From the NCBI GenBank assembly GCA_019058365.1, contig JAHPZE010000003.1:128001-192000 (forward strand): a stretch of 64,000 nt of DNA, written 5' to 3'. Source of the DNA: Promethearchaeota archaeon. Lineage in GTDB: Archaea > Asgardarchaeota > Lokiarchaeia > Sigyniarchaeales > SOKP01. Position 1 is the stretch's first letter. Each line of letters starts with the position of its first letter. The translations under genes and the position numbers were made by a program. Below the pieces are notes generated by a model. That model saw only the letters and a program-made list of their open reading frames with translations. It made no database searches and was not told the DNA's origin. Below are positions 6,249 to 60,857 of the stretch, piece by piece.

Positions 6249-9200
6249 TTACAACTTATCTTTAGATATTAAATTTGGATATATTGGTTCAAATTTCGAT
6301 GTGAATACCTTTGGTTTTTTCCAACACTTTTTTTTTTCATTCCATTTAAGATTTTTCAAGGGATTATAGAATTTTAGTAAATCTTCATCTGCATAAATCG
6401 ATTTAATTAGTTCATTACCATCAACTAAATCATTTAATATCAGATAGTCTTTAACCTCTAAATATTCGAATAATAAGTCAAATAATCGTTCAAATTCACT
6501 AATTTCGCATTTAGGAAAATAAATTTTAATCATTAGCCCCGTTGGGAATCTTTTTTCTTGATCAAATCCATAAATGAAATATTCTCCCGTAATTTCAGAG
6601 ATATGTACTAAATTAAAAAAACTAAAAACTTTTACAAGTGATTTAATCATTTCTTTTTTCAAATTCGGTACAATAATGTAAACTTTATTATGAAGGTCTA
6701 AATTCTTTAAAGACAAATAGGGGAAAATTAAATTTTTTCTTAATAGACTAGTGATGTGGCTTATTGTCAACACTTTTTTTGTGATTAAATAGGATTTGAT
6801 ATCTATTGATTGTCTATTATAAATTTGAGAAAGAGATTCAAATTCAGGAGATTCAGGACCAAAATAAGAAGAAATTGATTTGTTGCCGACTTCATATTCC
6901 TTAATAAATAAATTTTCTATTTGATATTTTGGATTGAAAAGTATAGTTTGCATGTGCATTTTAAATCTGTCTTTGTCATAATTCCAACCTTCTAGGGTAA
7001 GGTTATTATCAAATTGAATAATATTATAAACTTTTTTTATAAAAAATCCACAGTATTCTCGTATTATATTTTTCGATCTTGCTAACCAGTGGATATAACT
7101 TAGTTGAGGTGAATCATAAGGCATAATATAATTTATGAAAAGAGAATTAGAATTATCTATCGAGGTGGGATAGTTAATTTTTTGAAAAGTATTAAGGAGG
7201 AGAAGTTTAAAATCGATCTCGTTCATATCTGTTGGATAAAGAAATAAATAATATTGTCCCAGTCCAAAATATTCAAAAGCAGGAATAAATCTTATAGATT
7301 TAATAAAATTTGTGAAAAAATATTCTTCCTTAGCATTTTTAAATTTCTCAATATTTATTAGATACTCTTTAAGGTTTAAATGAAAATCTAACAACCGGTT
7401 TAAATTTTTGTCATTGTAATCACAATTTTCACTCATACCACGGTCGTTAACTTTTTTCACTAAATCTAAGATGTTTTCTTCATTCGACCAAAAATTTTTT
7501 TGATTTCTATTAATCTCTTCTTCACGATATTCTAACCCACTCCTAAAAATACTTTTTACATATAGAAAATATTGTTCATAGAGATCTTTCGTATAAAAGA
7601 AGGTTTTACTATCAAAATCATATAAGTGTTTGCTAGATAATGCTTTAATCCTACCAGTCCATAAAAAAAACTTTCCATAGAGTAAATTTTCTTTAAAAAT
7701 GTTATAAAGAATTGAGAATAATTGTCTCTTTTCTTTTTTAGTCAAATAAGGAGTTGAAATCTCTACATATATTAGATTTTTATCAGAAATTATCTCTTTA
7801 CTATGATCTATAGTGATTCTAGGGAAAAATCTTTTCATTTTAATAAGAAAATTTTGAGTTTCTTGAGAATTGATTAAGATTAATTGGAGAAAGTCATTTA
7901 CATATTCTTCGATGTTAATTGTGTTAATTAAAAGCGGATTGATTATTGGGGGTTCATTCTCCAATAATTTATCTAATATACTAGTTACTTCTTGGCTGGT
8001 TATTTGATAAAGTTTGAATTTTTCATAGAATTTTTCTAATTTTTCCAATTTTATTTGGTAAATATTATCTACTACTGTTTTATCGATAAATGTCTTTTTA
8101 ATCGTACTTAGGTTGAATAATTTCAAATTATAAAAAATGTTAATTAAGTCATGGAAATTTATGTAATTCTCAACCATCATTTTAAAATCCTCTTGAGACT
8201 TAAAGTAAGCTGAAATAAGATCGCTAGAATCAAGATTTTTTAAGTGACTGCTGTTAAATATGATATTATCTTCAATTAAATGAGAATGATATTGATTATC
8301 CAAAATGTCATGAAATTCAATAAGTGTTTTAACTTGAGGGTAGCGGGTTATAATTTTTTTTATAAAATCCAAAACTTGTAAATACTCCTCTAACTTCTTT
8401 TTTATATAGAAAAATCCAAATTTTTTATTTTCATTTAGAAATTCGAGAAATTTTAACTGTAGATCTTTTGAATCATAAAATTTATTTAATTTATCTTTTA
8501 AATCTATAATTAGAGTACGTTGAGTAATAATCTCATCAACCAAATCTGATTTTAAAGTCGCTAATGTTTCAGTCCTTTTTTCAAATCCAAAACCAAAAAC
8601 AGAAATAAAGCGAATTCTATCAATTATTAAAAATTGAAGAAGAGAAAGTTCAGGATTAGAAAAATCAGAACTAAAGTCAATTTGAAATTCGATCTCAAAT
8701 TTCTTATCATAACTACGATGATTAGGGTTTATTATTTTGTATTTTTGTGAATATTCTCTTAAATAATTTAAATTGAGTAGATGATTTTCAAATGTACGAA
8801 GCAAACAATAGCTCTTAGTTATAAAATTAGAACTTTTCAATCTCTTGATAAATTTAATAAAATCATCTAAGTAAGGTCTTGGGAGGATCACATAACCACT
8901 AAGTTCAACCGAAAAACTATTAAGTGAAGTCTTAGTTGCAATAAAGAATGGAGACCCTTCAATAATACTAAATATCTTAGATTTTTTTAATATTGGATTA
9001 AATCGTAGAAATACTGCTATAACACATACATTTATTGCATTCCAATTCAATTGATAAGAAGGTGCGATAAAACTGTACTTTTTGATCCAATCCATGTTTT
9101 TGATAAATTTCCTCAAACTTAAATCAGATTCGAGCTCTTGATTCTCTTTAAATTTCTGAAAATATTTTTTATAGCTTGATAGATCCTTATAATTCTTCAC

Positions 9201-9899
9201 TCGATAAAATATTCTTATTAAACATCTAATTGTTTCAATGATCTCATCATTAGTTATCGATTTTGAAATATAGTTAGCAAATTCTTGAAGGAGGATCTCA
9301 TAGAAATCATCCATTTTATTGGTAATTAATGATTCATTTTTTAATAGATAATGAAAAAAGAATCGTTTAGGAGGGAGGAAAGTATCTTTTTCTTGTTGTA
9401 GAAAAAATTTTTCCAAACGATCAAATATAATTAATCGATTGAATCCCCCTGATAAGAGATCATATTGCTCAAGTTTTCCTCTAATCAACTTTCTCCATTC
9501 ATTCAGCGCAATAGAGTTTGAAAGATCAGTTAATATTATTTGGTTGAGAACAAGTTGAATTGATTCATATTCTTTTAAACTATCTGAAATAAAACAGTTA
9601 TATATTTCACGGAGAATAATAAAGGAGATGAACTTTAGATAATCTTTATGCATTTCTATAATTAAATTTTTATTTTGAGTATACCTTTTTACTCCAATAT
9701 TAAAAATATCTTCAGTTCTTAATTGTTTTGAAATTTTTTTTTTATTAATTATTATTTTCACATTTTTTTGAAATGGTTCCATTTCTAAGGATAATTTAGT
9801 CTCATTAAGAAGACGTTGGAATAGTGAATTCAGATCTTTCTCATTGATTTTCTCTAAAGATTTTTCTAATACTCTAAGATCTAGCTTAAATATTTTCAT
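6249..9899 (-). CDS. Giant (1216 aa) putative multi-module Lrp/AsnC-like regulator, paralog of 57225-60857
   Basis: Collinear similarity to the 1210-aa protein (SDLSLRKF, GFE[KR]R, FFYTKDL, SIRFIP, LIFPYLSLKNL, YNPLKNLKWN, KFEPIYP). Repeated HTH-linker-RAM-like segments; the family call is inference. Confidence 0.6.
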   Translation of the reverse strand: MKIFKLDLRVLEKSLEKINEKDLNSLFQRLLNETKLSLEMEPFQKNVKIIINKKKISKQLRTEDIFNIGVKRYTQNKNLIIEMHKDYLKFISFIILREIYNCFISDSLKEYESIQLVLNQIILTDLSNSIALNEWRKLIRGKLEQYDLLSGGFNRLIIFDRLEKFFLQQEKDTFLPPKRFFFHYLLKNESLITNKMDDFYEILLQEFANYISKSITNDEIIETIRCLIRIFYRVKNYKDLSSYKKYFQKFKENQELESDLSLRKFIKNMDWIKKYSFIAPSYQLNWNAINVCVIAVFLRFNPILKKSKIFSIIEGSPFFIATKTSLNSFSVELSGYVILPRPYLDDFIKFIKRLKSSNFITKSYCLLRTFENHLLNLNYLREYSQKYKIINPNHRSYDKKFEIEFQIDFSSDFSNPELSLLQFLIIDRIRFISVFGFGFEKRTETLATLKSDLVDEIITQRTLIIDLKDKLNKFYDSKDLQLKFLEFLNENKKFGFFYIKKKLEEYLQVLDFIKKIITRYPQVKTLIEFHDILDNQYHSHLIEDNIIFNSSHLKNLDSSDLISAYFKSQEDFKMMVENYINFHDLINIFYNLKLFNLSTIKKTFIDKTVVDNIYQIKLEKLEKFYEKFKLYQITSQEVTSILDKLLENEPPIINPLLINTINIEEYVNDFLQLILINSQETQNFLIKMKRFFPRITIDHSKEIISDKNLIYVEISTPYLTKKEKRQLFSILYNIFKENLLYGKFFLWTGRIKALSSKHLYDFDSKTFFYTKDLYEQYFLYVKSIFRSGLEYREEEINRNQKNFWSNEENILDLVKKVNDRGMSENCDYNDKNLNRLLDFHLNLKEYLINIEKFKNAKEEYFFTNFIKSIRFIPAFEYFGLGQYYLFLYPTDMNEIDFKLLLLNTFQKINYPTSIDNSNSLFINYIMPYDSPQLSYIHWLARSKNIIREYCGFFIKKVYNIIQFDNNLTLEGWNYDKDRFKMHMQTILFNPKYQIENLFIKEYEVGNKSISSYFGPESPEFESLSQIYNRQSIDIKSYLITKKVLTISHITSLLRKNLIFPYLSLKNLDLHNKVYIIVPNLKKEMIKSLVKVFSFFNLVHISEITGEYFIYGFDQEKRFPTGLMIKIYFPKCEISEFERLFDLLFEYLEVKDYLILNDLVDGNELIKSIYADEDLLKFYNPLKNLKWNEKKKCWKKPKVFTSKFEPIYPNLISKDKL

Positions 9900-9988
9900 T
9901 ATGCGTATATAAGATTAGTCAAATAAATTTTAAGAGATTAATATTTAATTTTTTTCATTTTAATATTTAATAATCTTTTTTCTGGGAA

Positions 9989-9996
9989 TTTATATA
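9989..9996 (+). promoter_or_regulatory. TATA box of peptide gene 1
   Basis: TTTATATA after CTGGGAA, 59 nt before the start; conserved in the duplicated copy at 12058-12065. Confidence 0.6.
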
Positions 9997-10047
9997 TTTA
10001 AATTTTAAAAAATTCTTAAGAAAATTTAGTTTTCTTGGTGTATTCAT

Positions 10048-10158
10048 TTGAAAATTAGAAATAAAAATTCAATATTATTAGCTTTATTGACCAGTATTTC
10101 AGCTTTTTTTCATATGTCCATCGGGTATGCATGGTCTGGTGGATATGGGACGCCTTAA
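10048..10158 (+). CDS. 36-aa putative secreted peptide / RiPP precursor, MKIRNKNSILLALLTSISAFFHMSIGYAWSGGYGTP
   Basis: TTG start 7 nt after a GGTG Shine-Dalgarno; basic n-region plus hydrophobic h-region; paralog at 12116-12230; directly upstream of the radical SAM gene. Confidence 0.75.
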   Translation: MKIRNKNSILLALLTSISAFFHMSIGYAWSGGYGTP

Positions 10159-10371
10159 ATATGTTTAAGCTAAAAAATGCTATAAAGCTAACATATATTT
10201 TTATTTTTTTATAGTAATTTAAGAGGAAATGCACCTTTACTTAGAGTAATTATTTCATGTTTAGTCTATTACAGATTATTTTTCAATTATTTCTTTTATA
10301 CTAGAAAAAGAATTCATTTGGTTTATAAATCTAAACTTTCATAATAATACATCCACAGATTTAGCATAAAT

Positions 10372-11952
10372 ATGAAAGCTCAAAATTTTAAAATTCTTTA
10401 TATTCATCCTGAAGAATCCAAAAATCGACCTTATTTCCTTTCAGGTATATTACGAATCTCAAATTATTTAAATTCAAGAAAACACTCACTAAATTATAAT
10501 ATTGAAGAAGAATATTTAGACTTAAGATTTGAACGATTACCTTCATTCTCATTCAAAAATATTCATAATTATAGAAAAAAACTAAAAAAATTATTATTTA
10601 AAACATACGATGATTTCAACTTTAATTTAGTAGCAATATCTTGCTATAGTTCATTTTATTACCTTAACACCTTAGAAATTGCTTTCATTATAAAATATTC
10701 AATTAATCCTGATTGTATAATAGTTGTTGGTGGACCTCACCCATCAATCATTCCAAATGATTTCAATCCTATCAATATTCCAAAATTCTTTTATGAGTTC
10801 TACCCTGATAATATAATCCCATTTAATTATATCATAAGAGAAGAAGCTGAAATTGGTTTTTTTAAATTAATTTGTAGTTTATTGAAGAATAATTCAGTGG
10901 AAAGGTCATCTTCAACGCATAAATTTAGAACCCTTACATCAGATTTAATAATAGACTTAGACAAAATTCCTGTAATAGATTTTTCTCTTTATGAAAAATA
11001 TAAAGAAAAAATTAATAAATTAGGTTTTATTAATATTGATTTCTGTAGGGGTTGTATGTTTCATTGTTCATTTTGCATAAATTCAACAGATTTTATGAAT
11101 TGTTATAAAAAAGTTAGATTAAAAAATATCAATTTATGCATAGAAGAAATAAAAGTTGTTAATGATACTAAATGGTTATCTATAAATGATATTCATATAA
11201 TGGATCCAATATTTTTTCCTAATAGAAGTTACAGAAATAAATTTTACTTAAAACTAAAACAATTTAAACACGAAACTGATGGTTTTCCAGATAAGATTCG
11301 TGTTTTTGATCGGATAGATTTATGTTCAGAAAAAGATTTAGAAAATTACAAAGATTTAAACATTATTCCAGAAATTGGTCTTGAATCAATTTCTAAAACC
11401 ACCTTAACTAATATGAATAAATTAAAAACTCTAGATGATAAAAGTATTATTAATTATACTAATAAAGTAAGAAAAATTATTGAGATTTCTAATAATTTAA
11501 AGCATGAAGTTAATTTTAATTACATATTTGGTTTTCCAGGATCATTGAAAGATGAATATAATGATTTTGATAATTTCTTCTTTAAGAATAATCAAAGAAT
11601 TCACTCATTAATGGAGAATTTTAATATAAATATAGTTTGGACCTTATATGCAGCTATACCAAGATCTAAAATCTATAATGAATGCGAATCTAAATTTGGA
11701 GCAAAAATTTTTTATAAGAATTGGTGGAGAATGCCGAAAGATAATCAAAGGGAGCTATGTAAATTAATAAAACCCAGTTCTAATTTAACTTTTGCTGAAA
11801 CAATTAATTTAGCAGAAAAATATTTTAAAAAAATATATTTTTTTCAACAAAAAAGAGGAAACAGATTTTATTCTAAGAACTATTACTCATTTTATAAAAG
11901 TCACCTTAAGCAATTAAGAGATGAATATTCAGATATTCTCTTCACTCAATAG
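10372..11952 (+). CDS. B12-binding-domain radical SAM enzyme (class B methyltransferase-like)
   Basis: N-terminal cobalamin-binding domain (LVAISC...IVVGGPHPS), CxxxCxxC motif RGCMFHCSFC, IGLES, IFGFPG. Confidence 0.9.
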   Translation: MKAQNFKILYIHPEESKNRPYFLSGILRISNYLNSRKHSLNYNIEEEYLDLRFERLPSFSFKNIHNYRKKLKKLLFKTYDDFNFNLVAISCYSSFYYLNTLEIAFIIKYSINPDCIIVVGGPHPSIIPNDFNPINIPKFFYEFYPDNIIPFNYIIREEAEIGFFKLICSLLKNNSVERSSSTHKFRTLTSDLIIDLDKIPVIDFSLYEKYKEKINKLGFINIDFCRGCMFHCSFCINSTDFMNCYKKVRLKNINLCIEEIKVVNDTKWLSINDIHIMDPIFFPNRSYRNKFYLKLKQFKHETDGFPDKIRVFDRIDLCSEKDLENYKDLNIIPEIGLESISKTTLTNMNKLKTLDDKSIINYTNKVRKIIEISNNLKHEVNFNYIFGFPGSLKDEYNDFDNFFFKNNQRIHSLMENFNINIVWTLYAAIPRSKIYNECESKFGAKIFYKNWWRMPKDNQRELCKLIKPSSNLTFAETINLAEKYFKKIYFFQQKRGNRFYSKNYYSFYKSHLKQLRDEYSDILFTQ

Positions 11953-12057
11953 AACTAACAAAAATTTCGATTGCCTTTTAAATTAGTGATTTTTATAGGA
12001 AGAGATTCAAATTATTTCAAGATCTATCAATCTTAGTTGCTTCTCTTTTTCTTGGAA

Positions 12058-12065
12058 TTTATATA
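12058..12065 (+). promoter_or_regulatory. TATA box of peptide gene 2
   Basis: TTTATATA after CTTGGAA, 58 nt before ATG; mirrors 9989-9996. Confidence 0.55.
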
Positions 12066-12115
12066 ATTAAGTTTTGAAAAAAATTAAAGAAAATTTAATA
12101 TTTAGGTGTTTTTAT

Positions 12116-12230
12116 ATGAAAATTCGTTATTAAATTTTCAATTTTATTAGCTTTATTGACAGCGATTTCAGTTTGGCTTCGAATGGTGATATTAGGATTT
12201 GCAGTTAATGCTGGTGAAGAAGGTCTATAA
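12116..12230 (+). pseudogene. Second peptide-precursor paralog with a 1-nt insertion; reconstructed as MKIR(IKF)SILLALLTAISVWLRMVILGFAVNAGEEGL
   Basis: ATG after an AGGTG SD; reads MKIRY*, then the shifted frame gives SILLALLTAISVWLRMVILGFAVNAGEEGL*. 17-nt identity TTATTAGCTTTATTGAC (12144-12160 = 10075-10091). Confidence 0.72.
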
Positions 12231-12612: not shown

Positions 12613-12804
12613 ATGAAAAATGAAATGATTAAATATAAATGTCCTAGATGCCATGAAAAAAAAATAATCGACTATGGGAAAATAATTGAATGTGTTAAAT
12701 GTCAATTAGAGTTCTATAAAAGAGATATTGAAACTCTAAATAGAAGTAATATCTTAGCAATTTCAGAATTAAATGATTTTATAAGGATTTTAATAGAAAG
12801 TTAA
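12613..12804 (+). CDS. Small Zn-ribbon protein
   Basis: CPRC...CVKC; GTGAT SD upstream. Confidence 0.7.
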   Translation: MKNEMIKYKCPRCHEKKIIDYGKIIECVKCQLEFYKRDIETLNRSNILAISELNDFIRILIES

Positions 12805-12872: not shown

Positions 12873-12977
12873 TGGTGCTCCCGCCGGGATTTGAACCCGG
12901 GTCACCAGGGTGAAGGCCTAGCATTCAAGTATTTATTCAAGTATAATTATTGCTTGGCCGGACTACACTACGGGAGC
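12873..12977 (-). tRNA. tRNA-Glu(TTC), 27-nt intron at 24/25 (12924-12950), encoded CCA, C at position 33
   Basis: GCTCCCG/CGGGAGC acceptor; CTAGG-CCTTCAC-CCTGG anticodon arm; GGTTCAAATC T loop; BHB central helix CAAG/CTTG. Confidence 0.92.
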
Positions 12978-13102
12978 AAATTATTATTAAAACAATATAG
13001 GTATATTAATCTTTTAAAATCTTTGATTTGAAAGCTTTTAACTAATTATTAATGTTGTAATTAATTTTGGGTTAAAAATTTTATGAATCATAGTCTTAAT
13101 AA

Positions 13103-13220
13103 TGCGGGAAGGGAGATTTGAACTCCCGAACTCCTACGAGAATGGATTCTAAGTCCACCGCCTATGGTCAGCCATCGATCAAGCGCCTTACAGCCTTTGA
13201 CCAGACTTGGCAATTCCCGC
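13103..13220 (-). tRNA. tRNA-Leu(TAG), 33-nt intron at 21/22 (13164-13196)
   Basis: GCGGGAA/TTCCCGC acceptor; GTGGA-CTTAGAA-TCCAT arm; long variable arm; BHB helix GGTC/GACC. Confidence 0.93.
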
Positions 13221-13396
13221 AAGTTGATATGTTAAAATTGTATTAATAATTAATTAAAAGACTAAGAAATAAAAAAAATTTTTTATAAGAGATTTAAAAA
13301 TTAAATACGATTGAATTAAAAGATAAAAATTTATTATTATACATAATACTAGAAATATAATATCAAGACTTAGCACAAAAAAACCTGATTTCTCTA

Positions 13397-14395
13397 ATGA
13401 GTGTAAGAGAGTCCTTAATAAAACATTTAACATCTATTCTCCGAGCATCAGAAGGTACATTTTTAGTTGTGTTATGTGATCAGAATGGTCTTTCAATAGC
13501 AAAAATAGGGAGAAAGAGTGAGATCGACTTAAACCCAAATCAAATCACAAGTTTAGCTTCAGCAGCTTTTTCTGCTAGCGAAGAAAATTGGGAAGATTTA
13601 AATATTAAAGACCAAGTTATTTCATTTTCATACTTTGATAAAGTTTGTTTAATAACAATTAGAATTAATGAAACACTTCTAACTATAGTGCATGATTACC
13701 ATAAAGATTGGCCTCTAGATGCAGATAATTTAGCCACCGCCATGTATTATTTGAAACAAAAATTAGGTGAATTTTTTGGAAGTGGAGATCAATCAGAGAG
13801 AGATGTTGAAATTTTTTGCGATAAAGTTCGTAGTGCGATTTATCTTTTTGGAATGGGTTCTGAAGTTCCCTTCGTATCTTATAAGCCCGAAAAATTTGAA
13901 CAATCATATTTGTTACCTTCAATAAGTACAATTTTAGATTCCATTCAGAATCCCATTTTTATAAGATATGCTCTAGTTAACCCTTCTGGTTTAACTTTGG
14001 ATGCTAGAGAAGTAAGTGGCCAAAATTTACCTATAACTATTGAGGCTTTCTCTGCAAATGCGAATGCAGCTTTTCAAAAAATGAAAGAGGAATCTCGGGG
14101 AAGTTCTATAGGAGATTTATTATGCTATATTACAATTTCTGGGGAGAATACTGAAAGTTTCTATGGGCTTATTACTTGCCCGTCAGCAAAAATAAAATTC
14201 TCCACAATGGATAAAACATCAAATATAGAAGATATTTCTTTTATTGGTTTATTTACATTAACATATGGGGGAATACCAGTTATCTGTGAATCAAGAAACA
14301 TAATAAGTTCAATTATGCAAATATTTGGTGAAGAACACATAACTATGAACTTTATAAAATCTGTAAATGTTCTTACAAGTTTTAAGTATGAATAG
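13397..14395 (+). CDS. Double roadblock/LC7 (MglB-like) domain protein
   Basis: Two copies of the roadblock signature (VLCDQNGLSIA...SLASAAF; ALVNPSGLTLD...SANANAAF). Confidence 0.8.
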   Translation: MSVRESLIKHLTSILRASEGTFLVVLCDQNGLSIAKIGRKSEIDLNPNQITSLASAAFSASEENWEDLNIKDQVISFSYFDKVCLITIRINETLLTIVHDYHKDWPLDADNLATAMYYLKQKLGEFFGSGDQSERDVEIFCDKVRSAIYLFGMGSEVPFVSYKPEKFEQSYLLPSISTILDSIQNPIFIRYALVNPSGLTLDAREVSGQNLPITIEAFSANANAAFQKMKEESRGSSIGDLLCYITISGENTESFYGLITCPSAKIKFSTMDKTSNIEDISFIGLFTLTYGGIPVICESRNIISSIMQIFGEEHITMNFIKSVNVLTSFKYE

Positions 14396-53615: not shown

Positions 53616-54842
53616 ATGTTTAAATTAAAAAGAAACGGATCAAAATCATATTTTAATATAAATTATGTTTCATTTGTATTTATATATTTAACCTATTCAT
53701 CTATATTTGTTTTTCTTAATAAATTTCTTCCAATTCTCTTTTTTGATGTATTAGATATTAATAGAATTATTCTTGCATTAATGCAGTTTCTTGCTTATTC
53801 CATATTATTATTACGTCCTGTTTTAGCTACAATAACAGATAACTTCAGAATTAAGGGTTATCAACGGAAATATTATATTATTCTTTCTGGATATTTATTA
53901 GCGTTATTCTACATTCTTATTGGGTTTAACTTCAATAATATTTTAATGTTTGGAGTCCTTTTATGTTTGATTTATATTTCAAGTATGATGCTAGATGTTT
54001 GTTCAAAATCCTTAGTTATTGATATTTCACCAACTAACGTAATAAAAAAAAGAAACCTCTTTTTTGTGTCTTTAGGCGAAGCTTTAGGAAATTTTTTTCC
54101 TTTCTTTTTATTCTTTCTTCTTATCAATGATGTTCATTCAATAAATTCTTGGGAAACTATGATTTACTGTAGCTTTCTTTTATTAATACCTTTATTAAGT
54201 ATTTTGCCATTTATTATTGAGAGAAGGCAATGGAATCCTCAAGTCATCGAAAAGCCCGAAAGGATTGAAATTTCTGAAGAAATTAGTCTAAATTCTAATC
54301 ATAAACCTAAATTAACATTCATTTTACTCTGCATTTTTATCTTTTTTGCATTTAGCGATGTAATTTTCGCATATCCTTTTTTTCCTTATCTAATACACAA
54401 ATTTGGACTCAATAACTTTAATATATTTAATCTCTTTTTAAGCTTTTATTTTCTCATAAGTATAGTGAGTAGTGCAATTGGTGGATTTCTTGTTAAAAAA
54501 GCAAAACCTAAAATTATTATATTCATTCTAATCCCAATAATCGGAATTATTTATTTGATGTATATAATTGTCCCTTTTACATATTTTACTATATTATATT
54601 TTTTAGGATGCTCTTTAGGGACAATTGCTAACTTTAACATTACAGTATATATTATGAAGTTTAAACAAGGAGATAAATCAGTCTATTTTCACCTTATAGC
54701 ATCCTTCAGACATCTAGCATGCTTCATTTTTATTCCATTAGGAACTCTACTTTCCAGTTTTATAATTACTGAATATCTTATTATCATTGGTGCTATATTG
54801 TTGAATATCTCAATCCTTCCTTTAATTTTTGTAAAACTCTAA
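53616..54842 (+). CDS. MFS transporter
   Basis: About 12 TM helices; LRPVLATITDN...RKYYI and MLDVCSKSLVID motifs, as in BT1/AmpG-like MFS proteins; convergent with YcaO. Confidence 0.82.
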   Translation: MFKLKRNGSKSYFNINYVSFVFIYLTYSSIFVFLNKFLPILFFDVLDINRIILALMQFLAYSILLLRPVLATITDNFRIKGYQRKYYIILSGYLLALFYILIGFNFNNILMFGVLLCLIYISSMMLDVCSKSLVIDISPTNVIKKRNLFFVSLGEALGNFFPFFLFFLLINDVHSINSWETMIYCSFLLLIPLLSILPFIIERRQWNPQVIEKPERIEISEEISLNSNHKPKLTFILLCIFIFFAFSDVIFAYPFFPYLIHKFGLNNFNIFNLFLSFYFLISIVSSAIGGFLVKKAKPKIIIFILIPIIGIIYLMYIIVPFTYFTILYFLGCSLGTIANFNITVYIMKFKQGDKSVYFHLIASFRHLACFIFIPLGTLLSSFIITEYLIIIGAILLNISILPLIFVKL

Positions 54843-54879
54843 AAAAATTAAAAGAAATATTTTTATGATAATTATAATT

Positions 54880-56649
54880 TCAACAAAAGAAATCTTGGAT
54901 CTTATGATCATAGTGATTTTTAATAACCTTGAAAAGATCCGGATATTTAGATGTAATTTTTTTCTCGATAAATTCAAGTAAACCATATCTACATGTTCGC
55001 ACATGCCTGCAATTATTACATTCTTGATGACAATTTGGAATCAATTTTTCTAGCCTTGTTAAGAGTTTTTTTGAAAAATCTTTAAATGGTTCATTTTTAA
55101 ACGTAATTGGGATCTCATTGGATTTCCTTAATTTCCAAAATTTTTTAAAGAGATCAGAATTGCCGTAAGCTAAACAAAGCAAAGAAAAAAACTCCCATGT
55201 AGATATTCGTCTTAGAGCAAGTGTATCAATTCCTAGAAATGTTGAAAGGTTATAATTTTTTATCACTACATAAATCAACGATTCAGATCTAGATAATATT
55301 TCTAAGTCAATTGATTGGATATCTCTTATATTTGTTATGAGTATTTTCTTTAGCTTAAATACTTGATCTGGCATGTATAAGAGATAATCAAGTATGCAAC
55401 ATTCGAGTTCTGGAACAAATAATCTTATTGTAGGAAAACCAAGCCAATTATAGTCTCTCATATAAATATACCAACCATTTTTTCTACAAAATTCTGTAAG
55501 ATTTTTTAGTTCAACAAGAAAATTTTTATCACTATAATCCCATTTCTTAAAACTTCCAAAATTTACAATTAGAAATTCTAATTTTTTTGAAGGATACATT
55601 TGCTGGACTTCAAATCTATATTTGAAAAAACCTTCTAATGGGAAATAGTTGTTTATTTCGGGAAAAACTTTATACAATTTTGAAATACTTAATAAATAGC
55701 GTTTAGTATATCTTAATCTAATTTTATGAAATGGAAAGACTTGTAATTTTTCGGTAAAACATCGCTCAATTGCGAAATTAATGGAAGTAGCTGCGGATAT
55801 ATGAAATTCCAGTTTATCGATCTGTTTATGGTGAAAAACTACACCGACTACAGGGATTCCTTTGTTTAAGCTCAAATCTTTTACAATAATATCAATATTC
55901 TCTTTATTAAATTTCTGTATAATTTCTTTATTATTATTTGAAATATATTCTGATGGTATTGTAGGGCATTTTATATTATCAGAAATTACTTTTATTATAG
56001 TATAAGTTTCGAAAATCTCACATAAAGCTTGCACAAAAGCTTCTTCGTATGAATTTCCCGAGGCACATCCTTTAGTTGAGGATAAGAAAATAGTATCAAG
56101 AAAAACTTCTTCATTTGTATAAACATTCTTAAATGGGAGATACATCTTATTGTATCCATCCCAATTAGGTAAGTATGGATTGTTTTTTCGTGTTTTTTTA
56201 AAAATTCTCTCATTTAATTCTTTATCTTTCTCGGATATCTCTGTATTAAATATAGGACAAATCTTTGGTTTTAATAGGTTTCGTGAAAACCACCACCCAA
56301 TTTGAATTCTTTCTATTAATTCAGCATATCCACTAGCAACACTAGCCTCTAAAGTCGTACCTTTCCCAAAGGAATTATATAGAATAAAATCATTACTAAC
56401 CTCTAAAGCATGACTGAGATTTGTACTAGTGATCCATATATCTTCGATTGAACTTGTATAAGAAGAATGCTCAACAAATTTATTTCTTTTTAAGAAAAAT
56501 TTTAATGATTTTGTTATATTCTGAATGGTTTCTTGAAATGAAACGGCTTTATAACCATTCACTTTTTCAGAATTTCTAAAACCATTAAACTTTGGATAAA
56601 AAATATGTGTTCTATCCTGTTTAAAATAGGATTTATCAATTATTGTCAT
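54880..56649 (-). CDS. ycaO: Stand-alone YcaO-family protein with a Cys-rich C-terminal extension
   Basis: GKGTT...ASVASGYAELIER, KGCASGNSYEEAFVQALCEIFE, KDLSL..GIPVVGV, AIERCFTEKLQ, PTIRLFVP. Confidence 0.9.
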   Translation of the reverse strand: MTIIDKSYFKQDRTHIFYPKFNGFRNSEKVNGYKAVSFQETIQNITKSLKFFLKRNKFVEHSSYTSSIEDIWITSTNLSHALEVSNDFILYNSFGKGTTLEASVASGYAELIERIQIGWWFSRNLLKPKICPIFNTEISEKDKELNERIFKKTRKNNPYLPNWDGYNKMYLPFKNVYTNEEVFLDTIFLSSTKGCASGNSYEEAFVQALCEIFETYTIIKVISDNIKCPTIPSEYISNNNKEIIQKFNKENIDIIVKDLSLNKGIPVVGVVFHHKQIDKLEFHISAATSINFAIERCFTEKLQVFPFHKIRLRYTKRYLLSISKLYKVFPEINNYFPLEGFFKYRFEVQQMYPSKKLEFLIVNFGSFKKWDYSDKNFLVELKNLTEFCRKNGWYIYMRDYNWLGFPTIRLFVPELECCILDYLLYMPDQVFKLKKILITNIRDIQSIDLEILSRSESLIYVVIKNYNLSTFLGIDTLALRRISTWEFFSLLCLAYGNSDLFKKFWKLRKSNEIPITFKNEPFKDFSKKLLTRLEKLIPNCHQECNNCRHVRTCRYGLLEFIEKKITSKYPDLFKVIKNHYDHKIQDFFC

Positions 56650-56814
56650 ATTCTTATTACATGTTTATTTATTTCTATAAAATTTCTATAAGTCAAACAA
56701 ATTTCTAATTTCAATTTAAACTCCTAAAAACCTAAAAAATTTGAAAAATGATTTCAGTTTTTCAAAATAGTAGTTAAAAAATAAATATAAAACAGTTTTA
56801 GGACACGAGAAGTT

Positions 56815-56841
56815 AGAAAAGAAGAAATAAAAAGAAGAAAT
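56815..56841 (-). terminator. Oligo-T-rich tract after the peptide gene
   Basis: Minus strand TTTCTTCTTTTTATTTCTTCTTTTCT about 30 nt after the stop codon. Confidence 0.4.
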
Positions 56842-56869
56842 ATAGTAATTTAATTTGATAGTGATTTAC

Positions 56870-57010
56870 TTAATATGGAAATCCAGTTCTGCCATGAGGG
56901 ACTTGAAAGCGTGGGCATCCCTTACCGCCATGAGGGACTTGAAAGCGTGGGCATCCCTTACCGCCATGAGGAATCGTAAATAAATCAAATATCATCTCAT
57001 TGCTATTCAT
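56870..57010 (-). CDS. 46-aa multi-core RiPP precursor candidate, MNSNEMIFDL-FTIPHGGKGCPR-FQVPHGGKGCPR-FQVPHGRTGFPY
   Basis: Hand translation; same strand as YcaO and 220 nt upstream of it; three 12-aa cassettes; TTTAAATA TATA-like box near 57080-57087. Confidence 0.8.
   Translation of the reverse strand: MNSNEMIFDLFTIPHGGKGCPRFQVPHGGKGCPRFQVPHGRTGFPY
56891..56971. repeat. Perfect 36-nt tandem repeat, 2.25 copies
   Basis: GCCATGAGGGACTTGAAAGCGTGGGCATCCCTTACC at 56891-56926 and 56927-56962, plus GCCATGAGG at 56963-56971; GC-rich against an AT-rich background. Confidence 0.97.
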
Positions 57011-57224
57011 CTTTATTAAACCCTAATTATTAAATAATGAATTAATTAGTCATTATTCAATAACTTATGTTATCTCATATATTTAAAGTTCTAATATTTT
57101 CCTACACCTAGAGACAGGTAATAAAAAATAAAAGAAAGTAAAGTAAATCCTTAAATTGAAATAGAATTAAGTTAAATTATTTAAAAGAAAATCAACTTTT
57201 TTTTCTTAAATATAACGTTCTCTT

Positions 57225-60200
57225 TTGCAGATAATGGATTTCATAAATGAATTTGAACATCTAAAAAGGCTTTCATTAGGTAAAGAGCTCGAAGATATTG
57301 ATATAATTTTTCAAAAGTATATAGATTCTATATATAACTATTTAAAGTTAGAACCTGTTCATAAAAATGTGAGAATACACCTCTTGGAAAAAGAAAATTT
57401 ATTAAAAGAAGAAAAGGAAATTAATCCCTTTGATATTGGGGTTGCTCGATTCATCCAAGACAAAATCTTACATTTAGAGATCTCTCAAAAATATACTGAA
57501 TTTTTACCGTATATCTTATTAAGAGAAGCATATTATATTTTTCTTCCGAAAAGAAGTGTATCTGTTGAGATAGCAGTAAATTCATTTATAGAAAAGGATT
57601 TACAAGATTTAGATGAGATTGGCAAGTGGCAATCAATGATTCGAGAATGCTTTATCCATGATGATTCTGTGAGTAAAATTATGACGGCTTTTGAAAAATT
57701 ACATCTGGAAGTAGCAGACTTATGTAAAATATTTTTTAATATGGTTAGGAATAATATTTCCCTAATTGATAAAGACATGGATGATTTAGTTACTCGACTT
57801 CAAGAAGAAATAATGTCTAAACTCTCAAAAATTTTCTATAACGATGAAATGGTTGAGACTTTGAGAGTCCTCATCGAAATATTTTATAGAGTTAAACAAT
57901 ACACCGCATTATTGAATTATCAGGAACATTTTAAAATCTATAAAGAAAAAAATATAATAAAGAGTGATTTGAGTTTAAGGAAATTTACATCAAATATGAA
58001 ATTAATAAGCAATAATTCTCTACTTAGCCCTAGTTATCTAACCCGGTGGAATACAATCGATGTATTTGTTTGTTTCTGTTATATGAGATTCCATCCTAAA
58101 ATAACTGTTTCTCAGATAAATAGGATTTTAAAAACCTTTCCTTTTTTTCTAGAACCCAGAACTGCTTACTCTTCTGGCTTTTGTCCAGATATTTTTGGAT
58201 TTTTCATTTTACCAAGAGTCTACTTTTTAGATTTTATAGGCATATTAAACAGAATGAAAAATAATAATTATTTGACTAAATTATCTGTTTATAGGCTTAA
58301 CTATTTCTTTAATTTTGCTAACTTAAATTTTCTTAGGAGTTTTCATAAATATGAATCTCTTATTAATCCCTTTCACAATCAATATGATATTAAATTTGAG
58401 ATAAATTATTTCTTAAACTATGGTGAAAATTTTCATCAGAAAGAATTAGATCTGCTTGATTTTTTGATTTTAGATAGAATTAGGTTCTTTTCTACAAATT
58501 CATTTGGATTTGAAAGAAGAGCTAATACTTTAACAGACCTAAAAAAAAGTATTATTGAAGAAGTTACATATCAAAGAAATCTTATTATCGATATTAAAGA
58601 ACTTGCCAAAAAAATTTCTGAAAAACCAAAAATTAAATCCAATTTTCTTAAATTTTTAGATACCAACCAAACTTATGGACTATTTTATATTAAAAATGTC
58701 TTAGATTCACTACTAACAATATTGATCTTTATTGAAATATTTTTCATAAAAAATCCGAATATTAAAAACACATTTAATTTTAAAGAATGGATTAAGAAGC
58801 ATGGATTATCTAATCTAATTGAGAGTAATCTATTTTTAAAAAAAAAATTTATAAAAACACTGATTTTTAATGACTTCGTACCGCTTTATTTTAATTCTAA
58901 AGAAAAATTCAAGGAGAAATTAAACGAATACAAGATATACAATCAATTCATAGATATATGTTTCAATCTTAAAACATTCAATTTAAAAGTCATAAAACAG
59001 ATTGTTGAAAATCCGGAAACTTTGAAAAAAGTTTATGAAAAAAAAGAGTTAAAACTAAAAGAGATATATGAAATAGTGAAACTAACAGATATTACAAGTA
59101 AAGAAGTTGAAGAAAGAATAGCAGGATTCCTTAAAAATAAACCACCCATAATAGAACCGTGGTTACTTAACACTCTTGGATATTTATATACGAATATAGA
59201 AGATTTAGTTTTTATAATTAAAAATGATGAAGAAACCTTGAAAAAACTTAATTTAATTAAAAAGTTTTTTCCCTTTTTTATAATCTTTACTTCAACAGAT
59301 TTGATCTCTAATGAGGATATAATTTTTACTGAAGTCAGTTTCCCCAACTTTCATTACCGTGATGCATATCAATTTTATTCCATATTATATAATACATTTA
59401 AGGAAAATCTACTAATCGCTAAGAGATATTTATCTAGTGGATTTACTCCTGTATTTTCTTTAAAATCCTTTTATAATTTCGAGACACGTCAATTCTTTTA
59501 TACTAAAGATTTATTTAAGCAATTCTTTCATTACATACAAAAAACTTTAGGAGAAAATTTTGAGTTTATTCCAATTAAAGATAATAAAATCTTATCAAAA
59601 TTACTCTCAAAAGAAAATAATATGTTTAATTTGGTAAAAACAATAAAAAACAGACAATCAAGAGATAAAATTGATTATAAAATTAAAAACTTAAAAAAAT
59701 TAATAGAATTTAATCTCAATCTTGATAAATCATTAAAAGATTTAGAAAAATATAAAGAAATAAAGCAAGAAACCTTTTTTAAAAAATATGTAAACTCTAT
59801 CCGATTCATTCCCTCTTTTCAACATTTTGGATTTGATCAGTTTTTTTTGTATATTTTCCCGATAGATATGAGTAAAATCGATTTAAAACTTCTATTTCTC
59901 AATAATTTTCAACAAATAAAATGTTCCTCATCAATTGATGCTCCCAATCCATTATTAATTAAATATATCATGCCTAATAACACTCCCAATGATAAATATC
60001 TCCATTGGTTGGTGAAATCAATGAAAGTAATTCAAGAATACTCTTTATTCTCTGTTAAAAAAATTTATAGTTTATTACATTTTGATTACAATCTTGCTGA
60101 AAATGGTTGGGAATATGATGCTGATAAATTTAAAAGCCACTTGGAAAATATTCTCTTTAAGTCGGGTTATGAGATTGAAATTCCTAAAGTGAGAGAATTT

Positions 60201-60857
60201 AATATTTCAAAACAATTAACCTCTTCTTATTATGATCCAAAATCTGAGGAATATGAAACTCTCACCAAAATCTATGGTCGGAAATCCTTGGATATGAAAT
60301 CTTATTTAGGAACAAGAAATTATAAAGTTGTAAACTCAATTAAAAACTTATTAAACAAAAAATTAATATTTCCATATTTATCCCTAAAGAATTTAGGATT
60401 TCAAGATAAACTTCTTATAATTCTTCCCAATATTAAATCCAAATCTAAAGACATTTTATTACAAATATTCAGTTACTTTAATTATGGTTTTATTTATGAA
60501 ATTGAAGGAGAATTTTACATTTATGGATTTGATAAGGAAGTAAAATTTGAGGAAGGATTAATGATAAAACTGTATCTTCCAAAATCCAAGTTTAGCATGT
60601 TTCATAAATTTCTTGAAGTCTTTAATTTATTATTTGAATATTTAGAAATCCCCCATTATTTATTTTTATATGATTTAGTTAACAGTAAGGAGTTAATTAA
60701 ATCGGTTTATGGAAATATTCAGTTCCTAAAACAATATAATCCTTTAAAGAATCTAAAGTGGAATAAAAAGGACAAAATTTGGTTGAATCATAAGGTATTT
60801 ACTCAGAAATTTGAACCTATATATCCAGATTTACTTTATAATAAAGAAGATAATTAG
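57225..60857 (+). CDS. Giant (1210 aa) putative multi-module Lrp/AsnC-like regulator, paralog of 6249-9899
   Basis: End-to-end similarity with the 1216-aa protein; N-terminal LLREAY motif; repeated HTH-RAM-like segments (inference). Confidence 0.6.
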   Translation: MQIMDFINEFEHLKRLSLGKELEDIDIIFQKYIDSIYNYLKLEPVHKNVRIHLLEKENLLKEEKEINPFDIGVARFIQDKILHLEISQKYTEFLPYILLREAYYIFLPKRSVSVEIAVNSFIEKDLQDLDEIGKWQSMIRECFIHDDSVSKIMTAFEKLHLEVADLCKIFFNMVRNNISLIDKDMDDLVTRLQEEIMSKLSKIFYNDEMVETLRVLIEIFYRVKQYTALLNYQEHFKIYKEKNIIKSDLSLRKFTSNMKLISNNSLLSPSYLTRWNTIDVFVCFCYMRFHPKITVSQINRILKTFPFFLEPRTAYSSGFCPDIFGFFILPRVYFLDFIGILNRMKNNNYLTKLSVYRLNYFFNFANLNFLRSFHKYESLINPFHNQYDIKFEINYFLNYGENFHQKELDLLDFLILDRIRFFSTNSFGFERRANTLTDLKKSIIEEVTYQRNLIIDIKELAKKISEKPKIKSNFLKFLDTNQTYGLFYIKNVLDSLLTILIFIEIFFIKNPNIKNTFNFKEWIKKHGLSNLIESNLFLKKKFIKTLIFNDFVPLYFNSKEKFKEKLNEYKIYNQFIDICFNLKTFNLKVIKQIVENPETLKKVYEKKELKLKEIYEIVKLTDITSKEVEERIAGFLKNKPPIIEPWLLNTLGYLYTNIEDLVFIIKNDEETLKKLNLIKKFFPFFIIFTSTDLISNEDIIFTEVSFPNFHYRDAYQFYSILYNTFKENLLIAKRYLSSGFTPVFSLKSFYNFETRQFFYTKDLFKQFFHYIQKTLGENFEFIPIKDNKILSKLLSKENNMFNLVKTIKNRQSRDKIDYKIKNLKKLIEFNLNLDKSLKDLEKYKEIKQETFFKKYVNSIRFIPSFQHFGFDQFFLYIFPIDMSKIDLKLLFLNNFQQIKCSSSIDAPNPLLIKYIMPNNTPNDKYLHWLVKSMKVIQEYSLFSVKKIYSLLHFDYNLAENGWEYDADKFKSHLENILFKSGYEIEIPKVREFNISKQLTSSYYDPKSEEYETLTKIYGRKSLDMKSYLGTRNYKVVNSIKNLLNKKLIFPYLSLKNLGFQDKLLIILPNIKSKSKDILLQIFSYFNYGFIYEIEGEFYIYGFDKEVKFEEGLMIKLYLPKSKFSMFHKFLEVFNLLFEYLEIPHYLFLYDLVNSKELIKSVYGNIQFLKQYNPLKNLKWNKKDKIWLNHKVFTQKFEPIYPDLLYNKEDN

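Follow-up and report, generated by a model that had tools for sequence, protein, structure and literature searches.

A conserved pairing of tiny peptide genes with a large HTH-RAM regulator in Lokiarchaeia: a probable peptide-signalling cassette with an optional B12 radical SAM enzyme

The window considered here, a 64-kb stretch of contig C35 from a lokiarchaeial genome of 4.74 Mb and 29.5% GC, harbors a locus in which three kinds of genes can be found side by side. Homologues of the genes of this genome are labelled Promethearchaeota or Lokiarchaeota in the databases, in line with a Loki-type Asgard host. The smallest, peptide gene 1 (10048-10158, + strand), is intact, has 36 codons and a TTG start, and encodes a product with a basic N-terminus, a hydrophobic stretch and a small-residue site at which a signal peptide would be cleaved (signal peptides were called by charge and hydropathy). 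The predicted mature octapeptide corresponds to positions 10132-10155. The putative promoter region (9977-10047, +) displays a TATA-like box at 9989-9996 and an SD-like GGTG at 10037-10040, and a T-rich run at 10198-10212 (+) is a likely archaeal terminator. Divergent to peptide gene 1, a gene at 6249-9899 (- strand) encodes a protein of 1,216 aa, a putative peptide-sensing transcription regulator. On the other side lies a gene for a cobalamin-dependent radical SAM enzyme of 526 aa (10372-11952, +), with cysteines 228, 232 and 235 and a TATA-like box of its own at 10322-10329, followed by a second peptide gene with a duplicated promoter (12046-12230, +), which is a probable pseudogene. Downstream of the cassette, a 63-aa Zn-ribbon protein (12613-12804) is conserved in G101, L033, L035 and G113. 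Two tRNA genes with apparent introns (~12876-12978 and 13104-13223, - strand), Glu-like and Leu-like by eye, were both missed by ARAGORN, and a double roadblock/LAMTOR-like protein (13397-14395; weak PF08923), a eukaryotic-signature gene, is convergent with tsr3.

As stated in the preliminary description of this DNA, the promoter, SD and leader are duplicated: the block at 12046-12185 matches that of peptide gene 1 at 79% over 130 nt (E 1e-23), with the copies 2,069 nt apart. This pair is the sole such match in the genome, where a search revealed no additional close copy of either peptide gene. The same description placed the enzyme between two paralogous peptide genes; the enzyme and peptide gene 1 stand, but copy 2 is frameshifted. 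Its ATG at 12116 is followed after five codons by a stop at 12131-12133, and the 115 nt from start to final stop are one base too many. The bases of copy 2 are identical in a contig of run X2 (0 differences or gaps), which belongs to the same study and so is no independent sample. In G101, the orthologue of copy 2 (L001:1371-1487) is intact. The former core (12204-12227) gives a tail without the terminal Pro that is present in 55 of 84 family members. Judging from these features of its sequence, copy 2 is most likely a decaying pseudogene that would have arisen via a one-base frameshift. An alternative start at the in-frame TTG at 12156, giving 24 aa without an SD and without a basic N-terminus, is unlikely. 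Programmed frameshifting was considered as a rescue of copy 2 and rejected, no slippery site being seen and the tail being degenerate. Another decaying copy is seen in G072, where the tail of a peptide gene (L074:5534-5773) appears to be frameshifted or read through.

G101 has the same core as peptide gene 1, and L035 has one with a single residue changed, the codon changes being synonymous; compared with the same relatives, the leader shows deletions and substitutions, and the core is conserved more. Among the closest radical SAM loci (68-86% identity), G101 has four peptide genes, L033 three and L035 two, and some twelve additional genomes yielded relatives in a search with a peptide profile. 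The 84 family ORFs are bimodal in length, with either 8-14 or 34-41 codons; an SD precedes 57 of them and a T-run can be found within 50 nt downstream of 60. After Met removal or predicted signal cleavage, the mature peptides would have ~8 residues, with an aromatic residue or Pro first, abundant Gly, and Pro usually last. Base differences among similar cores fall on the third codon position in 202 cases versus 79 and 87 for the other two, an excess inflated by the choice of core pairs with similar residues. The proposal that pheromone-like C-terminal octapeptides are borne by signal peptides at this locus is supported, the peptides being conserved in relatives. That exactly eight residues follow a constant leader is true of both local tails, each with Gly at position 4, but in the family it is only a tendency, since cores of 9-11 residues occur and many members are leaderless. 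A Cys-containing subfamily of peptide genes was also observed, at L048, L056 and L059 (G022, from another family of the order) and at L050 (G026); the regulator was not found in these genomes with the query used, and in G022 the peptide gene is present in identical form at three unrelated loci.

The constant partner of the peptide is not the radical SAM enzyme but the 1,216-aa protein, whose gene lies just outside the stretch covered by that first description and was missed there. Almost all of the peptides found by profile adjoin a homologue of this ORF, mostly in divergent orientation and mostly without any radical SAM gene. To quantify this coupling, 129 distinct copies of the regulator were collected with their flanks, 121 of which had enough intergenic DNA, and mini-ORFs were scored when Gly/Pro-tailed and provided with an SD or an ATG, a filter that was written after examples and for which the baseline was taken from controls. 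A divergent mini-ORF is present at 65/121 regulator genes versus 17/939 control genes of the genome to which the window belongs; the other strand of the regulator loci gave 12, and shuffled sequences gave 0-6/121. The signal-peptide type accounts for 19 loci and the leaderless type of 8-14 aa for 46. A relaxed scan added ~20 loci with mini-ORFs, some of them downstream of the regulator, and no peptide is seen in some regulator clades, e.g., G023/G025/G027. Hence a small ORF with a predicted secretion signal and a short C-terminal peptide can be found adjoining the gene of the candidate receptor. The peptides are real and conserved, and the cassette is a conserved peptide/regulator pair. Other genes recur in its vicinity. 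In ~25 loci (L084, L086, L088, L091-L093, L169, L174, and others), the regulator has an acyl-CoA synthetase-like (CoA-binding) gene next to it, a cargo gene whose product might acylate the peptide or represent a regulated output. At L146 and L149, a Cys-rich gene, YkgJ-like by eye, follows tandem peptide genes and is a possible cargo enzyme.

The two forms of the peptide differ in their gene neighborhood. In L033, the peptides retain the basic start and the tail while the hydrophobic stretch is gone, and an MFS gene can be found at that locus. More generally, an MFS gene is nearby in 0/19 signal-peptide loci versus 34/46 leaderless loci (Fisher P = 1e-8, a value that overstates the effect since the loci are related); 12 leaderless loci have no MFS gene in the flanking DNA examined. 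In a FastTree phylogeny of the regulators, the signal-peptide and leaderless forms both recur in several separate clades, and the cores track the regulator clades. That cores of one kind are paired with either of two export routes is the best argument that the peptide exits the cell. Inspected by eye, the upstream regions display TATA and SD elements only.

Regarding the regulator itself, searches of Pfam and of PDB sequences with its alignment gave no match, and none of 40 members had a Pfam hit. Its AlphaFold model (pLDDT 87, pTM 0.87) suggests a layout of a minigluzincin-like N-terminal domain, a winged HTH, four Lrp/AsnC-type (RAM) units and a second HTH. The N-terminal domain matches minigluzincins (selecase and jannalysin, Z 5.8-5.9), and the winged HTH with the following RAM unit matches Lrp/AsnC proteins (Z 5.9-6.6) as well as HTH_AsnC clusters. 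A helical insert comes next, then a second RAM unit that would complete a NirDL-like pseudo-dimer (Z 8.1), and the C-terminal half comprises two RAM units and the other HTH. The structural Z-scores of single domains are middling (5.8-8.7), and in a Foldseek search with the whole regulator only NirDL was found below E 0.001. No TPR family was detected among the 40 members, the model consisting of zincin-like, HTH and alpha/beta RAM units, and no membrane helix is apparent in the regulator (maximal 19-residue hydropathy of 1.47). In the HExxH motif of the zincin-like domain, both metal-binding His are replaced across the family, the Glu being kept in 109/110 homologues; by its sequence, the domain appears to be a dead peptidase and stands outside the zincins proper. 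The regulator is present in 116/134 other genomes of its own family and in 0 from other families of the class. Identity amounts to 39-41% for the zincin-like domain and the first two RAM units and to 58-63% for the last two RAM units; such variability is expected where specificity is set, and the zincin-like domain or the first two RAM units could hold the peptide. When residues 11-800 of the regulator were modeled with the whole precursor 1, the complex scored 0.38 versus 0.01 for the best control, to be read against a mark that was reached by 58/80 solved pairs and 2/110 mismatched pairs and in the knowledge that scores at 0.60 or under comprise 7/80 solved pairs and both passing mismatches, so that passes there are more often wrong unless the pair was likely beforehand. 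Between runs, at least 40% of the contacts coincide, and the partner pLDDT is 33-38. The prediction weakly suggests that regulator and peptide may form a complex.

The radical SAM enzyme has an N-terminal B12-binding domain and a radical SAM barrel with three cluster cysteines (228, 232 and 235), invariant in its family, as in class B enzymes. Its Pfam and NCBIfam matches are below the cut-offs, the best in NCBIfam being the RiPP enzyme ApyD (41.8 bits against a cut-off of 750), and the fold of its model (pLDDT 88) is that of TsrM, TokK and MgmA (Foldseek TM 0.54-0.62). An extra domain resembling an RRE is not seen in the model, and some B12 RiPP enzymes are devoid of one. The family is specific to Lokiarchaeia, with members in 25/161 genomes, and a metagenome scan with the enzyme gave no confirmed locus. 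Among 35 distinct loci, 14 have the enzyme beside the regulator and/or a peptide gene, 12 of them beside a peptide, in at least four separate radical SAM clades; two combine regulator and MFS genes with the enzyme and no visible peptide. With one to three regulators in 4 Mb, the enzyme gene would adjoin one by chance in well under 1% of cases, so that this link is functional. Conversely, neither peptide nor regulator can be found in the flanks examined of 21/35 loci, and no member of the enzyme family was found in the peptide-bearing genomes G105, G086, G069, G063 and G113 (96-100% complete), where the best matches are generic B12 radical SAM proteins (best E 1.7e-18). In G105 (99% complete), the same locus comprises three peptide genes, one of which has a core identical to that of G101, and no gene for the enzyme. 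The enzyme loci lacking peptide and regulator, together with near-complete peptide genomes lacking the enzyme, indicate that the enzyme is cargo: it is an optional part of the cassette. Looking for small ORFs beside radical SAM homologues, as suggested at the outset, thus succeeds with the closest homologues, but most peptide loci have no radical SAM gene. No separate precursor gene for the enzyme was found at the locus. The enzyme could be a regulated output with a different substrate, or else serve for optional tailoring; methylation of the peptide by it is conceivable but somewhat doubtful. Two further arrangements were seen in the enzyme family. At L011 (G151:C27:37564-40710), two copies are fused in a single open frame of >1,000 codons; at L006, L008, L009 and L013 (G036-G039), the gene lies between tsr3 and a roadblock gene with no peptide or regulator adjoining, surroundings that represent the same chromosomal neighborhood as the locus in the window.

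A second cassette can be found in the same window (53616-60857). It comprises an MFS transporter (53616-54842, +) of the family that goes with leaderless peptides, a YcaO-family enzyme (54880-56649, -; PF02624, E 2e-38) downstream of a precursor gene (56870-57010, -) with three tandem 8-residue cores of the same Gly/Pro pattern, and, divergent from this precursor, a paralogous regulator of 1,210 aa (57225-60857, +) that is 42% identical to the first. The layout recurs in G102 (L118); in the precursor from the window, the third core is degenerate. The YcaO enzyme probably tailors the three-core precursor, and the whole is likely an Asgard YcaO RiPP cassette, which favors the notion that tailoring takes place in the system.

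Taken together, the first locus is probably a lokiarchaeial peptide-signalling cassette. A tiny gene would give rise to a Gly/Pro-rich peptide of 8-10 residues, which would be exported either by means of a cleavable signal peptide, as at the locus in the window, or, in the leaderless form, by a neighboring MFS exporter. An oligopeptide ABC transporter would then probably bring the peptide back into the cell. Four PF00496 oligopeptide-binding proteins are encoded in the genome, none of them in the cassette; an organism that ferments peptides would be expected to have such transporters in any case. In the cytosol, the peptide would bind the divergently encoded 1,216-aa regulator, a presumed DNA-binding protein that would then alter the expression of the peptide gene and of neighboring cargo genes, so that cell density might be sensed. 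The B12 radical SAM enzyme would belong to this cargo, as a regulated output or an optional C-methylating tailoring enzyme. A broader picture, i.e., an independent Asgard peptide quorum sensing with hundreds of octapeptide codes, two export routes, a receptor of dead-peptidase/Lrp type and B12 or YcaO editing in some lineages, is put forward as a tentative possibility.

Other readings of the locus can be weighed against the same observations. In a RiPP pathway, the radical SAM enzyme would methylate the peptide core, the product would be exported and the large protein would merely regulate the cluster. The two to four peptide genes at all four closest radical SAM loci, the adjacency of enzyme and peptide in at least four enzyme clades, the resemblance to ApyD, TsrM, TokK and MgmA, and the RiPP-like second cassette with its three-core precursor and YcaO enzyme would all suit such a pathway. 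It is nevertheless unlikely in view of the five genomes that carry the peptides without the enzyme family and of the majority of enzyme loci that have neither peptide nor regulator. Moreover, the nine-codon leaderless peptides beside other members of the enzyme family offer no leader and the enzyme model has no RRE-like domain, the cores adjoining the enzyme have only Gly, and mostly Pro, in common, and the enzyme gene has its own TATA-like box downstream of the T-rich terminator. Alternatively, the peptides might be exported end products, whether antimicrobial, metal-binding or nutrient-related, while the RAM domains of the regulator sense another small molecule. The usual ligands of Lrp/AsnC RAM domains are single amino acids, and MFS exporters with tailoring enzymes would suit a product cluster, but this account seems improbable considering that the cores track the regulator clades, that neutral, unmodified, Gly-rich octapeptides would hardly act as toxins, that the peptide/regulator pair persists with all other genes absent, and that the complex prediction weakly points to binding.

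The mini-ORFs might instead act in cis, as attenuators or ribosome-stalling leader peptides for a downstream MFS or radical SAM gene. Many leaderless ORFs do lie upstream of such a gene on the same strand, hairpin or T-rich sequences follow the ORFs, and these are rich in Pro and Gly; yet many loci have a convergent MFS gene or no gene downstream, tandem copies have their own promoters and terminators, and the same cores can be found behind a signal peptide in sister clades, which makes a role in cis very improbable. The single hydrophobic stretch of the 36-41-aa forms (12-residue hydropathy of 2.36) might point to type I toxin-like peptides or to small membrane proteins; however, this stretch is dispensable, as orthologues in L033 and G073 drop it and keep the tail, and the tail is more conserved than the leader, so that there is hardly any likelihood left for this explanation. 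The signalling cassette is the preferred reading. Its interest stems from how little is known about signalling between archaeal cells, and from the fact that short predictable peptides can be synthesized and the receptor expressed. If the peptides govern growth or aggregation, they could help to cultivate very slow-growing Asgard archaea. In addition, genes of 8-14 codons that annotation misses are exposed, and an orphan family of B12 radical SAM enzymes gains a candidate substrate.

Archaeal quorum signals are little known, and the signal of Haloferax, unidentified, has been described as a small molecule (PMC12240190). In a literature search of partial coverage, no system of a peptide and a cytosolic receptor in Asgard archaea was found, nor any description of the cassette, which most likely serves signalling. 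Among the parts taken individually, the radical SAM enzyme resembles TsrM, TokK, MgmA/QCMT and ApyD in its B12-binding domain, TIM barrel and three-cysteine cluster motif, but with 12-14% identity it is far below all family cut-offs, and the enzyme and precursor are too inconsistently linked (12/35 enzyme loci) for a plain radical SAM RiPP cluster. The regulator shares with Lrp/AsnC and NirDL-type fused HTH-RAM proteins a winged HTH followed by RAM folds, but differs from them by four RAM units per chain, a long helical insert and the N-terminal zincin-like domain. As in the streptococcal Rgg/SHP RaS-RiPP operons, a regulator, a signal peptide and a radical SAM enzyme can be found in one locus, and there the radical SAM operons are a regulated output of Rgg/SHP; the RaS-RiPP enzymes have a separate precursor, in which they introduce cross-links, whereas the locus described here has a cobalamin-dependent enzyme and yielded no separate precursor gene (PMC13361665).

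Both forms of the peptide have bacterial precedents in the available text of PMC10518010. The leaderless form is reminiscent of leaderless communication peptides (RopB/SIP, LCP), with an ultrasmall ORF, a mature peptide of 8-10 residues and an adjoining receptor, and leaderless and propeptide forms occur there too on one receptor tree; their receptor is unrelated, and their transport route is non-canonical with no MFS partner described in that text, unlike the dedicated MFS that accompanies the leaderless form here (PMC10518010). The closest parallel in organization is with the RRNPPA systems of Bacillota and phages (Rap/Phr, PlcR/PapR, AimR/AimP, Rgg/SHP), which in the same available text have a peptide beside a cytosolic regulator, a propeptide of ~40 aa with a secretion signal and a short C-terminal peptide, usually divergent from the regulator gene, and cores that vary with the receptor clade (PMC10518010). 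A cytosolic receptor with an HTH is likewise suggested here by the HTH-RAM matches and by the lack of a membrane helix. In contrast to RRNPPA, the host is an archaeon, the peptides are Gly/Pro-rich rather than hydrophobic, signalling is inferred, and the receptor, of 1,200 aa, would combine a dead zincin-like domain, HTH and four RAM units without a TPR domain, which places it outside RRNPPA. With the logic of RRNPPA but no homologous parts, such a system would have arisen by convergence, in the lineage to which eukaryotes are closest.
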